Positions 5,317 to 64,000 of a DNA stretch of 64,000 nt are shown piece after piece. The translations under genes and the position numbers were made by a program. The stretch comes from Patescibacteria group bacterium (GTDB lineage: Bacteria; Patescibacteriota; Microgenomatia; UBA10105; UBA927), in NCBI GenBank assembly GCA_035510735.1, contig DATKGN010000004.1, positions 177,039 to 241,038 of the forward strand, written 5' to 3'. The notes beneath the pieces were generated by a model. It worked only from the letters and a program-made list of their open reading frames with translations, was not told the origin of the DNA and did no database searches. The number at the start of each line of letters is the position of its first letter. Within the stretch, counting starts at the first letter, position 1.

Positions 5317-5997
5317 TTATATTTTTCCCCAGTGTGCTTTTCCCCGGCCTATGACGACGGGTTTTTCATTACCATTCCAGATTACTGCGGTATTTTCATC
5401 AATGCCAAGCCAGTTGGTCTTTACTTCTTCCGGCGCTTCATTCATTGAGCGCTCAATTTTATCTTTGAAGGTTTTGAGGCCCCAGTCAAAATGCGGCCAA
5501 ATGGTATAAGGGACAAGACCTAATGCCTTGGTCCAGCCGGGACCTTTTCCGTCCTGAAAGAATACAGAGCGGATGTTTGCCGGAATCCAACTCCCCAAAA
5601 GCATCGCACCTGCGGAACTGCCTGCGAGAGCGGCTCCCTCACGGAAGCGCGAATATATAGTTTCCCACGCGGGTGAATCTTGAATCGTCGATAACACATA
5701 CCCCGGATCGCCGCCTGAGAAGTAATACGCATTTGCTTTTCCGAGAACATCAATGACTGATTGTTTTTTCGCATCGCTTGGGGTTCGAAGCGGGATGCCG
5801 ATTGATGAAATACCGAGCTTTTCATAATAGCGGGTTCCGTCATCGACCCATTTCCACCATTTGCGTTCCTGTCCCGCAGCGGTCGGGATTATTGCGACCA
5901 TCGGGTTATGAATAGGTCGGAGAAAATACCGGTCAATATCGCGCATTGCGTCAGTAAATTCACCAGATCCTGCAAGAAGTAATGGTCCCTGTGACAT
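5317..5997 (-). CDS. peptidase S51 family (cyanophycinase / dipeptidase E-like)
   Basis: GSSAGAM nucleophile-elbow motif in a class I glutamine amidotransferase-like fold context. Confidence 0.6.
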   Translation of the reverse strand: MSQGPLLLAGSGEFTDAMRDIDRYFLRPIHNPMVAIIPTAAGQERKWWKWVDDGTRYYEKLGISSIGIPLRTPSDAKKQSVIDVLGKANAYYFSGGDPGYVLSTIQDSPAWETIYSRFREGAALAGSSAGAMLLGSWIPANIRSVFFQDGKGPGWTKALGLVPYTIWPHFDWGLKTFKDKIERSMNEAPEEVKTNWLGIDENTAVIWNGNEKPVVIGRGKAHWGKI

Positions 5998-61467: not shown

Positions 61468-61512
61468 CCATTCTAAAACCGATTCCCGCACCAGCGGAAA
61501 TGACATTAATTG

Positions 61513-62136
61513 CTACTCTGCAAGTGCTACACTATCACCTTTTCCTATTTTTTCAACCCTTACACATGAAAACGTCTTGACACCGAGCGTTGCGACGTAC
61601 TCGAGTCCTCCCTGAAAAATTTTATCAAACATTACAGCATATCCCGCGACATTGACCCCGCGTTTCTGAAGACCGCTGACGATATGGTACCCGGTTTCGC
61701 CGGTTGCGCAGACATCATCAAGGAGGAGCACATGGTCTCCCTTTTGGACAAATGATAAATTGATGCCGGAAAACACTGTGAGAAAATCACCGCTTGTCGT
61801 GAACGACCGGATTTCTTCGCGATAAACATCTTTCCAAGTTGTGGGAATATTCTGATCTTTCCGCGAACTGTGGAGCCGGACATTGTCTCCAAGTTCCAGC
61901 GCAACGGCCGTTGCCAGATAATTTCCGGAGTGGGGGATACCGTGGACGATATCAACCTTATCGTTTTTAAATTCGTTGGCAATGATTTTGGCGGCAGCCC
62001 GAAGGACTCCTGCCTTCATCCGTAAATTAAACGAGGAAACGGAAATGTAGCCGCGGTCGGGGTCTAGAACTTTTGCATCACGCAAAAATTCACTTTTGAG
62101 GTAGGCAAGCTCGCTTTGAAGGGCCGTTGCCGTCAT
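61513..62136 (-). CDS. type I phosphoribosyltransferase (purine salvage PRTase-like)
   Basis: PRPP-binding motif VLLLDDVCATGET. Confidence 0.7.
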   Translation of the reverse strand: MTATALQSELAYLKSEFLRDAKVLDPDRGYISVSSFNLRMKAGVLRAAAKIIANEFKNDKVDIVHGIPHSGNYLATAVALELGDNVRLHSSRKDQNIPTTWKDVYREEIRSFTTSGDFLTVFSGINLSFVQKGDHVLLLDDVCATGETGYHIVSGLQKRGVNVAGYAVMFDKIFQGGLEYVATLGVKTFSCVRVEKIGKGDSVALAE

Positions 62137-62169
62137 ACGCTATTATATCACTTAGAGATAAATCAATGA

Positions 62170-62598
62170 TTATCCCGTTGTACTCAAACCATTTATGATT
62201 TGAAAAGCTGGCCGATCGCTTGTTTGAAAGATAGTTGTTGGGATGGAGTCGCCCACGTAAATATTTCGATCGACTGGTTTCCAACCTTCTCCAGGCTCAA
62301 TGCCCACCGGGCCTGTAAATATTATGCCTGCGTAATTTACAAATTGAACCCGTTCATCGTAAACATAAATAATATCCTCACCAAGTAGTATGTAACGGTT
62401 TTCTGTCAGAGGAGTATTAGGTTTTTCATGAATTTCTGCAACGTGGGAAAAATCGTCAATGACAACATCCTGTGGCCCTCGGCCAAGTGTCGTATGATGA
62501 ATACGACCATCGTTTTCAATTCTTCCGTGAAGAGTATTTTTAACTTCACCGTTCGGTCCTGGAACTATTAAACAAACCTCAACACTAGCTATTGCCAT
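62170..62598 (-). CDS. small hypothetical protein, possible dCTP-deaminase/dUTPase-like beta-barrel
   Basis: GAAAGGAA RBS before the Met at 62598 (MAIASVEV). The block GIIFTGPVGIEPGEGW weakly resembles the r-IDPGW-G motif of the Dcd/dUTPase superfamily. ORF opens at 62715. Confidence 0.35.
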   Translation of the reverse strand: MAIASVEVCLIVPGPNGEVKNTLHGRIENDGRIHHTTLGRGPQDVVIDDFSHVAEIHEKPNTPLTENRYILLGEDIIYVYDERVQFVNYAGIIFTGPVGIEPGEGWKPVDRNIYVGDSIPTTIFQTSDRPAFQIINGLSTTG

Positions 62599-62648
62599 AT
62601 AATTCCTTTCTTCGCCAATAACATATTTATTATTTGACCCCACACCAT

Positions 62649-62819
62649 CCTTACCTCCCGATCGTGCTCTACGTGCACGCGTCGGAGGGGTGGAGGTAGC
62701 GGGGTTGATCGGCAACTAAACTCATGAATAGGAATTCATTCGTTAATTTGCCATCAAAAATAGGGCGCTGAGCAAGCCCTAATAATTTTGTTATACATTA
62801 CAAGGGATCAATCGTCAAG
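62649..62819 (-). repeat. structured intergenic module, copy 1 (promoter-like TTGACG-17-TATAAC, hairpin + U-run, long-range stem, CCTTACCT box)
   Basis: About 75-80% identical to 63427..63591 with conserved blocks CAATCGTCAAG, TTATACA, AGGGCGCT..AAGCCCT, TTGATGGCAAATTAACG, GAGTTTAGTTGCCGATCAA and AGGTAAGG (minus-strand sense). Confidence 0.6.
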
Positions 62820-62826
62820 TCGAAAA

Positions 62827-63369
62827 TTATAATTGTATTCCAGCTTCAAATACTACAACTACTCTTTTAGAAACGACATTTTGATTCTCATCTCGATGAT
62901 AAATGTCTTGTGCAATATTAAAGTATGCAGGAATTAAACTGAATGCCCCTTTGCGTTTGACAATTTCTGGTTTGATCTCTTGCGTTCGGAGTATTGGCTT
63001 AGTCGAATCCGATAATTTTGAAACTACTGTATTTTTCCGACCTTCAATATCTTCATTCGTATTAAATTTTTGTTGTATCCAATCCGTTGGCTCAGTAACA
63101 ATTAAACCTCCATGGCGGTCAGGTTTTATTGTAATATTAGAATCCGTTAACGTGATTATGGCGTCACCAACTAATTGATTTGCATTAGGAATTGAAGCTA
63201 TCATAGCGCCCTCACATCCATCATATAACTCATTATCTAGGTAATGAAATGTACCATTTCCGTCAAGCAAGCCCTCTAAGTCTTGTACGGATGGAGTTTC
63301 TCCATGAAGCTTCGTAATATGCAGTGTGGCACGTATACCAATTATGTTACCCAGCTCAATGTTATCCAT
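62827..63369 (-). CDS. small hypothetical protein, dCTP-deaminase/dUTPase-superfamily-like
   Basis: AAAGGAG RBS before the ATG at 63369 (MDNIELG). ITIKPDRHGGLIVTEPTDW parallels the Dcd/dUTPase motif r-IDPGW-G-ivLE. Distant paralog of 62170..62598. Confidence 0.4.
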   Translation of the reverse strand: MDNIELGNIIGIRATLHITKLHGETPSVQDLEGLLDGNGTFHYLDNELYDGCEGAMIASIPNANQLVGDAIITLTDSNITIKPDRHGGLIVTEPTDWIQQKFNTNEDIEGRKNTVVSKLSDSTKPILRTQEIKPEIVKRKGAFSLIPAYFNIAQDIYHRDENQNVVSKRVVVVFEAGIQL

Positions 63370-63426
63370 AATGAACTCCTTTAATGCGCCGGGAAAATAT
63401 CTATATCCGCCGTATCTTAGCACTCG

Positions 63427-63591
63427 CCTTACCTACTATTCGTAGCGCGGCTCGTGCAGCGATTATTGGCGGATTGATCGGCAACTAAACTCTCCTTCGA
63501 CTTCGCTCAGGATCGTTAATTTGCCATCAAAAAAGGGCGCTAAATAAGCCCTATTAAATTTCTTATACACGACAAGAGAGCAATCGTCAAG
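63427..63591 (-). repeat. structured intergenic module, copy 2
   Basis: Same block order as copy 1. Promoter-like TTGACG-17-TATAAG, hairpin AGGGCGCT-AAATAA-GCCCT plus U-run, long-range stem TTGATGGCAA/TTGCCGATCAA. Confidence 0.6.
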
Positions 63592-63684
63592 AGTGAAACA
63601 GTTGTCATTTCCGCGAAGGCGGGAATCTTGTTGTTGAAGAGTGGATCATCGGGTCAAGCCCGATGATGACATAGAACCAAGAAT

Positions 63685-64000
63685 TTACTTCACGTAAAAT
63701 TTTTTGACGAAGGATATTTGTTCTTTCGTGAAATGAAGGTTTTCAAGAAATTTATTAATTTCTGTATTTGATTTTCCCTCTTTGTGCATACTATTAAATA
63801 TATTTAATATCATTTCCGAGGGCTCATAGGGAAATGATATCCATGCTGAAGTAGTCTTAGCAAAGTAATCGGGTTTATAAACAGAGTGCGGTTTGTAATA
63901 GAGAGTTAAGGTATAGATTTTTTTCGGGGTAAACATTTTAAGATACTCGATCGCGCGAACCATTGTGTTGCCCCGATCAGCAACATCGTCCACCAATAGT
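63685..64000 (-). CDS. phosphoribosyltransferase-domain protein (5' end beyond window)
   Basis: PRPP-binding motif VDDVADRGNT near the N-terminal end of the visible part. The ORF runs off the window edge. Confidence 0.5.
   Translation of the reverse strand, partial: LLVDDVADRGNTMVRAIEYLKMFTPKKIYTLTLYYKPHSVYKPDYFAKTTSAWISFPYEPSEMILNIFNSMHKEGKSNTEINKFLENLHFTKEQISFVKKFYVK

Follow-up and report, generated by a model that had tools for sequence, protein, structure and literature searches.

A structured, patchily distributed element behind terminator-like hairpins in two tandem leaders of a Gottesmanbacteria-related genome

We have analysed a 64-kb stretch of DNA from a Patescibacteria group bacterium (contig DATKGN010000004.1, positions 177,039 to 241,038; hereafter the window), an organism whose closest named relatives are Candidatus Gottesmanbacteria of the candidate phyla radiation (CPR). 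Coordinates refer to the plus strand of the window, and the features of the module described here are read on the minus strand. Two copies of this intergenic module, copy A and copy B, lie between a phosphoribosyltransferase (PRT) gene and a second gene of this kind, XPRT-like. The module is not one unit; it joins a promoter-like element plus hairpin (P+hp1) to a structured element of two further hairpins (S2S3), and the two parts have separate histories. The reading we favour, to which we assign a probability of roughly 45%, is that the window carries an A-type and a B-type insertion of an undescribed, patchily distributed, terminator-associated structured element, S2S3, in two tandem native leaders.

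An earlier note on this DNA had described two minus-strand copies with 75-80% identity, and both were found where it placed them, with every block that it listed. In a MAFFT alignment (62590-62840 versus 63365-63620) the column identity was 78%, in agreement with that figure, but the identity is not even: P+hp1 and the S2 core are nearly identical, the S2 apex and S3 are of different subtypes, and S2S3 as a whole is only 54% identical between the copies. The blocks CTTGACGATTG, TAGGGCTT, AGCGCCCT, TTTTTGATGGCAAATTAACGA, GAGTTTAGTTGCCGATCAA and AGGTAAGG are identical in both. In the window, the 19-mer GAGTTTAGTTGCCGATCAA occurs exactly twice (0.03 expected), TAGGGC-N6-12-GCGCCCT twice (0.01 expected) and TTGACG-N16-18-TATAA twice (0.2 expected); chance does not explain the shared blocks. 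Both leaders folded much more stably than shuffled sequence (z values of -4.85 and -3.76), and both showed the same three-hairpin layout, with hairpin 1 (hp1) and a U-run followed by S2 and then S3. The last, a third long hairpin, had not been described as such in the earlier note. An unfiltered S2 covariance model found these two copies (80.6 and 67.8 bits) and no third one in the window, the next sense-strand score being 10.8 bits (E about 2). The identical blocks beyond chance, the common fold and a covariance model finding exactly two copies confirmed the observation. Read along the minus strand, genes and copies follow one another as PRT, copy B (about 63590-63404), the open reading frame (ORF) ORF180, copy A (62818-62637), ORF141, XPRT-like, guaA, guaB and PNP. 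The parts of the two copies are the following.

63585-63590, minus strand: copy B -35-like hexamer TTGACG, conserved at 8 sites in 6 genomes
63562-63567, minus strand: copy B -10-like hexamer TATAAG
63534-63553, minus strand: copy B hairpin 1, resembling a terminator (UAGGGC...GCGCCCU), with a stem of 6 bp, a loop of 9 nt and about -7 to -8 kcal/mol
63529-63533, minus strand: copy B U-run
63524-63528, minus strand: copy B GAUGG
63474-63529, minus strand: copy B S2, 67.8 bits with the covariance model, B-type apex UCCUGA..GAAGGA
63404-63473, minus strand: copy B S3, B-type UCCGCC...GGCGGA, 3' strand with AGGUAAGG and a GUG at 63423
62813-62818, minus strand: copy A -35-like hexamer TTGACG
62790-62795, minus strand: copy A -10-like hexamer TATAAC
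62762-62781, minus strand: copy A hairpin 1, -8.1 kcal/mol
62756-62760, minus strand: copy A U-run
62751-62755, minus strand: copy A GAUGG
62705-62756, minus strand: copy A S2, 80.6 bits, A-type apex AUGAAU/AUUCAU, with AUG GCA AAU UAA inside
62637-62704, minus strand: copy A S3, A-type long hairpin whose 5' strand CUACCUCC pairs with GGAGGU

We have searched for the module with exact 19- or 25-nt patterns in GTDB species genomes and then in JGI metagenomes. The further copies whose search had been proposed are present in other genomes: these scans gave 7 distinct true loci besides the window, all confined to Gottesmanbacteria-type sequences; three GTDB species representatives each contained a single exact match. 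Two further hits, both inside coding sequence, were discarded as chance matches. Eight distinct S2S3 copies, including copies A and B, were available for comparison (the loci fetched from relatives are designated L007, L008 and so on). Viral contigs contained no copy of the module, and nhmmer and the covariance model found no diverged copies in the 41 fetched loci and the window. No Rfam 15 family reached its gathering threshold anywhere in the window and, at E<=10 over 62100-64000, nothing lay over the module on the minus strand; a SAM_alpha hit in that region (E 1.8) was dismissed as chance. For L007-L009, L012, L013 and L015, Rfam returned rRNA and one group I intron and nothing else, and a literature search found no relevant described motif after 5S genes in CPR bacteria.

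The positions of the 8 distinct copies follow a single rule. All of them lie directly after a hairpin or processing stem and a U5-8 run, in the orientation of the upstream transcript. At L008/L014, L009, L012 and L013, S2S3 stands about 20 nt past the 5S rRNA 3' end, and neither a promoter nor hp1 is present; the element follows immediately on the 3' arm of the 5S-enclosing stem (AAACCGCUCUAGAGUC...GACNGUGGAGCGG) and its U-run. The L015 copy follows a duplicated 20-nt 5S trailer, and that of L007 occupies the orthologous site after the PRT gene. Presence is patchy among near-identical relatives: L031 is empty (5S, 54 nt, cupin) with a 5S gene 99% identical to that of the filled L009, and L033 is empty with a 5S gene 99% identical to that of the filled L013. 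Between the filled loci L012 and L009, the 5S genes are only 85% identical and the S2S3 elements 92%. One metagenome-assembled genome (contigs L021 and L008) has its PRT site empty and its 5S site filled.

P+hp1, in turn, was found with and without S2S3. It consists of TTGACG-17/18-TATAAS, 7-8 nt, a UAGGGC/GCCCUA hairpin, a U-run and RUGG, and is kept at 8 sites in 6 genomes.

Window 62756-62818, minus strand: P+hp1 of copy A
Window 63529-63590, minus strand: P+hp1 of copy B
L007 2890-2958: P+hp1
L020 2695-2765: P+hp1
L021 10586-10650: P+hp1
L035 about 5318-5385: P+hp1
L038: two P+hp1 sites

Across these sites the hexamers vary (TTGACG/TTGACT/TTGCAT/TTGATG, 17-18 nt, TATAAS/TAGTAT/TATAAA), and the spacing of 17-18 nt is retained while indels fall elsewhere. 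The hp1 stem is invariant (about -8 kcal/mol), with a variable 9-nt loop and five to seven U. What the earlier note had singled out as a promoter-like TTGACG-17-TATAAC/G element followed by a GC hairpin and a U-run is conserved with fixed spacing at all 8 sites, and the upstream part is a predicted sigma-70-type promoter, with hexamers at a conserved spacing of 17±1. A simple promoter/terminator scanner flagged neither the promoter nor the hairpin, which we attribute to a -10 without its final T and to the 9-nt hairpin loop. Since the -10 always lies 7-8 nt before the hairpin, transcription would start at the purine just before UAGGGC, and hp1 would become the 5'-terminal stem-loop of the transcript. 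Most likely hp1 has a dual role, its stem and U-run stopping read-through from the upstream gene (PRT or ORF180) and forming the 5' end of the new transcript. For each of the small ORFs in the PRT-XPRT interval, a terminator-like hairpin falls within the initial ~30 nt of the presumed transcript. In copy B, hp1 was also predicted to pair over a long range with the ribosome-binding region, but this pairing is not conserved in L007, L021 or copy A and was set aside.

At five sites (L020, L021, L035 and both tandem sites of L038) P+hp1, with its U-run and RUGG, occurs without S2S3, and hp1 and the U-run are unchanged where S2S3 is absent. In L038, the tandem P+hp1 units precede two small ORFs without the rest of the module. 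A start codon (RUG-G) follows the U-run at every site, filled or empty, and the downstream flank of L021 (..TTTATTTCGGCGCA..GGAGG..ATG) is common to copy B and L007. Since each of the two parts occurs without the other, P+hp1 is read as the native leader of the small ORFs of the PRT-XPRT interval and S2S3 as a separate element.

The subtypes of S2S3 further separated the element from its surroundings. In copy A, S2S3 shares 83-87% identity with the 5S-linked A types of L009, L012 and L015; in copy B, it shares 84% with the element that L007 carries at the orthologous site. The L007 element is itself a mosaic, with an A-type S2 apex and a B-type S3, and the S3 of L008 is a third type. Because the subtypes are discordant with their flanks, the window copies are not a duplication of one composite unit, and the earlier contention that they do not reflect simple duplication of flanking genes held. 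A plain, recent tandem duplication of one functionless intergenic segment would account for two adjacent copies at 78% column identity, but we regard it as refuted: the two S2S3 subtypes are far closer to copies in other genomes than to each other, the family recurs in other genomes and loci with compensatory changes, and P+hp1 is found in tandem in L038 without S2S3.

Turning to the boundaries, the left edge of S2S3 is always a U-run plus (G/A)AUGGC. Exact TGATGGC stands on both sides in L012 and L008, the right repeat is degenerate in L009 (TGGTGGC), L015 (TGATGC), L007 (GATATGGC) and copy B (GATACGGC), and it is missing in copy A. Empty sites show a single copy (GATGGC in L033, GTGGC in L021) or a shorter remnant (GTGG in L031, ATGGG in L020/L035), and a U-run plus RTGG was found nowhere else in the window. 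The element's UUGCCGAUCAA pairs with the target-side UUGAUGGCAA, forming the base of S2. Such a boundary pattern would be compatible with site-specific insertion accompanied by a short duplication and, equally, with precise deletion between two internal repeats. The earlier note had offered two readings, a small mobile intergenic element and a riboswitch- or attenuator-like leader. The former suits the S2S3 part best, given its presence and absence in near-identical relatives, the mixed subtypes per kind of site and the flanking repeats; the latter finds no support as a general function. We infer that insertion, rather than repeated deletion, lies behind the patchy distribution.

S2S3 is 118-146 nt long and consists of a near-invariant irregular hairpin, S2, and a long variable hairpin, S3, of 65-90 nt. 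S2 is built of UGAUGGCAA/UUGCC(G)AUCA, a 3x3 loop AUU/UAG, AAC/GUU, a tandem G-A/A-G and a variable apical hairpin. Its core is identical across the 8 copies except for one G-to-A change in L009, an invariance that is partly due to ascertainment, the copies having been found by exact patterns, so that only the unsearched half of S2 is independent evidence. The covariation suspected in the inner hairpin was borne out: among six A-type S2 apices, two pairs are changed on both sides (C-G/U-A/U-G and G-C/A-U), a covariation score reached by 11 of 500 shuffles. The two B-type apices have UCCU/AGGA and UCCC/GGGA (U-A versus C-G) and keep the internal tandem GA, and the A-type S3 shows three compensatory pairs among four sequences. 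In each of the 8 copies, folding favours the sense strand over the antisense strand by 4-15 kcal/mol owing to G-U pairs, and this bias suggests that the hairpins are selected, as RNA or as DNA, on the strand co-oriented with the 5S and PRT genes. S2S3 thus behaves as a conserved structured RNA, with moderate support from a small sample of related sequences. Short resemblances to a 5S rRNA paralogue, signal recognition particle RNA, 6S RNA and a 16S 3'-end mimic were rejected as chance, with no Rfam hit, and the likeness of GAUGGUGUGGGGUC to Escherichia coli 5S is absent from the organism's own 5S.

Several points weigh against insertion of a mobile element. Repeated precise deletion between internal (U)GAUGGC repeats would give the same pattern of filled and empty sites, and the sequence to the right of the repeat (UAUAC/UAUAA) is common to L015, L021 and L033, a hint that the repeats form part of a larger homologous unit and are not a target duplication. 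The element has no terminal inverted repeats; its ends lie between direct repeats (AAATTAACGA.../...GGTGTGGGA), and the inverted repeat of 16-17 nt in S2 is an internal one. Only 1-3 copies per genome are visible, which is few, and no transposase, integrase or reverse transcriptase was found in the fetched flanks, which cover only parts of the genomes. The very high conservation of the S2 core, partly a search artefact, suggests a host function or a protein partner, and with only 8 distinct copies the covariation statistics are weak.

These points bring in a different account, the main rival, which we consider possible though rather unlikely: S2S3 would be a vertically inherited functional non-coding RNA, or an rRNA-operon trailer transcribed past the 5S terminator and then processed, whose S2 loops bind protein and which has been lost repeatedly through (U)GAUGGC deletion, copies A and B being extra paralogues with their own promoter. 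It would explain why the S2 core is near-invariant in the 8 copies, with its non-canonical loops (AUU/UAG) and tandem GA conserved, as well as the compensatory changes in the S2 apex and S3, the folding bias of the sense strand and the fact that behind 5S genes neither position nor orientation varies. A promoter-like element or trailer also lies upstream of the copies in the window, L007 and L015, and the sequence shared beyond the right-hand repeat extends to several loci. Such an RNA is not essential, however, being absent next to 5S genes that are 99% identical to those of filled loci. There is no terminator after S3, the upstream hairpin and U-run should halt most transcription before the element, the three S3 types and the mosaic copy fit poorly, and the invariance comes in part from exact-pattern ascertainment.

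The riboswitch or attenuator reading was weighed against the structure and the genes that follow. An alternative pairing between the U-run and the 5' arm of S2 had been proposed; the arm does overlap the last one or two U, but it shares no base with the hp1 stem, and no mutually exclusive terminator/antiterminator pairing was found. In copy A, the 3' strand of S3 contains a Shine-Dalgarno (SD)-like GGAGGU and an AUG (62646-62648) buried in the stem, and the 19-codon frame from this AUG ends at 62589, 4 nt past the ORF141 start. In L015, the last bases of the equivalent frame are AUAUGA and fall on the start of an ANT(2'') gene without an SD of its own. The short-frame peptides of S3 (MVWGQIINMLLAKKGIIWQ, MVWGGGWIPQRGMIE, MVWDDG, MVWGDAILRI and MVWGGV) share only stem-fixed codons, and a functional peptide (phage moron, type I toxin or leader peptide) was rejected. 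The S2 5' strand, in turn, holds an invariant mini-frame, AUG GCA AAU UAA. An influence of S2S3 on local translation is plausible as a secondary effect, with the A type burying GGAGGU-AUG and the frame ending at the next start in copy A and L015.

As a full cis-regulatory leader, S2 would sense a ligand, a protein or a ribosome on AUG GCA AAU UAA, S3 would be the expression platform hiding the SD and the start, and GCCGAUCA could possibly switch by pairing with the downstream UGAUGGC. We judge this unlikely. It draws on the location of the element in the window, L007 and L015, where a promoter or trailer precedes it and an ORF follows, on the buried GGAGGU-N4-AUG of the A-type S3 with its frame stopping at or just after the next start, on two equivalent partners of GCCGAUCA in L008, L009 and L012, and on the start codon that follows the U-run at filled and empty sites alike. 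The genes downstream of S2S3 are nevertheless functionally unrelated (a strict ORFan, a member of a ~135-aa family, a cupin and an ANT(2'')-like gene); at L008/L014 the next gene is convergent, and at L009/L012 the cupin gene has its own predicted extended -10 promoter (TGnTATGAT) past the element. Hence, no constant 5'-untranslated region (5'-UTR) position before a coherent gene set was found. The terminator stem meets no competition from S2. Furthermore, Rfam gave no match, the short peptides show no conservation of either length or sequence, copy A has no downstream UGAUGGC, and the orthologous leaders of L020, L021, L035 and L038 function without S2S3.

We have also considered the genes around the two kinds of site. 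Those flanking the window copies are the following.

PRT gene, ends at 63685, minus strand: upstream of copy B
ORF180, 62827-63369, minus strand: downstream of copy B, a strict ORFan
ORF141, 62170-62595, minus strand: downstream of copy A

Among 5.8 billion clustered proteins, ORF180 found only itself. The ORF141 family (~135 aa, motif TLGRGxQ) had 7 hits in 1.84 billion representatives and sits just upstream of the XPRT-like gene in relatives (e.g., L021 10696-11100). Neither protein matched Pfam or NCBIfam, and paralogy between them or a hidden transposase was rejected on the same ground and for want of mutual similarity. At the position of ORF180, the L007 leader is followed by a different N-terminus (MLENITQLTGDTG...), and L038 has ORF161.

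On the rRNA side, the conserved gene downstream of 23S-5S in this lineage is the cupin gene. Between 5S and cupin there is nothing extra in L031, a GNAT gene in L033, a ClpB-like gene in L028 and, in the genome of L015 (L041 769-6000), a 5.5-kb islet with ANT(2'') (PF10706; the ANT(2'') type is an aminoglycoside nucleotidyltransferase), ParE/Phd and genes of no assigned function, with no integrase. In L015, a 20-nt repeat of the 5S 3' end and trailer, GGACAGTGGAGCGGTTTTTT (2757-2781 and 737-760), flanks a 2-kb segment of two genes, its second copy leading into S2S3. Both intervals that bear S2S3, 5S-cupin and PRT-XPRT, are hot spots of variable content.

Such intervals might recall integrons, with S2 as an attC-like folded recombination site and the adjoining small ORFs or islets as captured cassettes, an idea that we find very improbable. 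In its favour, small genes of the ORFan type alternate with the repeat in the window, gene content varies in both intervals, 7-nt direct repeats bound the element, and the 20-nt trailer duplication flanks the two-gene insert of L015. The attC R''/R' consensus is RYYYAAC/GTTRRRY, and the imperfect palindrome of S2, AATTAAC...GTTTAGT, matches each box at 6 of 7 positions. Only 5 of 7 positions, however, pair between the R-like boxes, which are enclosed in a longer stem; nothing in attC corresponds to S3, and no integrase was found in any fetched flank. The repeat moreover precedes the ORFs, whereas attC follows its cassette; no copy of the repeat follows ORF141, and variable genes occur at hot spots without any S2S3 (L033, L028 and L038).

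Among known systems, S2S3 is closest to group IIC introns in its choice of target and to modular intergenic repeats in its form, and it has the defining features of neither. Class C (IIC) group II introns are described as lying directly downstream of intrinsic-terminator motifs (an inverted repeat and a T-run), in terminator orientation (PMC1702495). S2S3 likewise stands just after a hairpin or processing stem and a U-run in the same orientation, and the pairing of UUGCCGAUCAA with the target-side UUGAUGGCAA resembles the partial 5'-exon base pairing of these introns. It differs from them in its length (118-146 nt) and in having no domain V/VI, no GUGYG start and no reverse-transcriptase ORF; Rfam gave no group II hit in the module; and S2S3 is bounded by a 6-7-nt direct repeat, whereas IIC introns make none.

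Pneumococcal BOX, enterobacterial REP/BIME and ERIC, and Neisseria Correia sequences are short, intergenic, non-coding hairpin elements transcribed into structured RNA, often near terminators and made of mosaic sub-modules. They can alter the expression or stability of neighbouring transcripts and reach tens to hundreds of copies per genome, and Correia and ERIC have terminal inverted repeats. S2S3 shares with this class its small size, intergenic and non-coding character, stable hairpins and mosaic modules. In contrast to BOX, REP and ERIC, it occurs in 1-3 copies, with no terminal inverted repeats, a single strict type of site and one orientation; instead of many dispersed copies, the 64 kb hold two. 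The lack of terminal inverted repeats also separates it from miniature inverted-repeat transposable elements.

At the left end of IS200, a terminator hairpin precedes a stem-loop in which the ribosome-binding site is hidden, and IS200/IS605 and REP-RAYT elements move strand-specifically by means of sub-terminal single-stranded DNA hairpins, inserting 3' of a short sequence (TTGAT for ISDra2). The S2S3 site TTGAT|GGC resembles this target. Unlike the end hairpins of IS200/IS605, which are alike, S2 and S3 are unlike each other, and no Y1 transposase or RAYT lies nearby, the adjacent ORFs having no Pfam or NCBIfam match. With integron attC sites, S2S3 has in common an imperfect palindrome maintained as structure, alternation with small ORFans and 7-nt core repeats; it differs in that no integrase was seen, in its place relative to the ORFs, in the extra outer stem and S3, and in arms strongly conserved in sequence. 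Finally, a promoter, a 5' hairpin with U-run, a conserved helix with loops and a buried SD downstream recall riboswitch or attenuator leaders, from which the module departs by lacking a competing terminator/antiterminator, a coherent regulon and an Rfam family, and by being found outside 5'-UTRs.

The favoured reading, insertion of S2S3 into native leaders, runs as follows. Every known copy of S2S3 comes immediately behind a "hairpin, U-run, (G)AUGG(C)" site and is oriented like the upstream transcript, and its usual home in related Gottesmanbacteria is the 5S rRNA trailer. In the window, A-type and B-type elements would have arrived independently at the two tandem P+hp1 targets, each placing some 120 nt of stable structure ahead of the ribosome-binding site, after the 5' hairpin. 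A bolder version, which we judge unlikely, would make S2S3 the visible part of an undescribed terminator-seeking CPR mobile system that creates gene hot spots and depends on an unlinked or unfamiliar enzyme. In that version, an RNA or single-stranded DNA module of ~120 nt would recognise "hairpin, U-run, GAUGGC" through the pairing of UUGCCGAUCAA, and would mark or create spots that gather accessory genes and ORFans, such as ANT(2'') and ParE/Phd in the 5S-cupin interval and the ORFans of the purine-salvage operon.

Some further observations were made in passing. Independent assemblies of the window strain (contigs L023-L026, and L016) break off within copy B, some 260 nt past the PRT gene, and the L007 contig ends just after its S2S3 element; breaks after the PRT gene are expected for a repeat, since repeats break short-read assemblies. 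Between the PRT stop and copy B (63600-63680, minus strand), outside the module, lies a segment of ~75 nt with two strong hairpins (GTCATCATCGGG-CTTGA-CCCGATGATCC and ATTCCCGC-CTTC-GCGGAAAT), framed by GTCAT...ATGAC. It is absent at the same position in L007, L020, L021, L035 and L038, and a partial-pattern search found no second copy. A sub-threshold Rfam match to FtrB (Francisella sRNA B) covers 63569-63688 on the plus strand (40 bits against a gathering score of 66, E 1.5e-4). The segment may be a further small palindromic insertion, or it may serve as terminator of the PRT gene. In the short XPRT-guaA spacer (61483-61500), an unrelated hairpin, TTCCCGC-ACCA-GCGGAAA, matched one of the partial patterns; its stem is similar to that of the segment's second hairpin. 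Other diverged direct repeats of the window, with 74-85% identity (32507-32593/35376-35462; 44553-44812/45599-45831; 17459-17497/18462-18500), are probably paralogous coding segments. In relatives, L028 has ~300 nt of non-coding DNA after 5S (1183-1480), with a second, interrupted 5S-like fragment (CCTGATTCGCAAGATTCCGG ... GCAGTAGGTCATTGCCAG) and several GC hairpins. LAGLIDADG-type ORFs and group I introns were noted in 23S rRNA genes (L008 1257-1784, L013 911-1429, L015 3344-3579 and L033 2572-2827), as is usual for CPR bacteria.

CPR genomes are tiny and are regarded as poor in repeats and mobile DNA. The conserved structured element described here is present in some relatives and absent from others, behind the 5S terminator and a promoter-proximal hairpin, and marks two intervals in which close relatives differ in gene content. 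On the practical side, the repeat interrupts assemblies of the window strain right after the PRT gene. P+hp1 is a compact overlap of terminator and promoter. S2S3, if mobile, would be a new site-specific element in an unculturable lineage and, if a host RNA, a new RNA motif linked to the rRNA operon.

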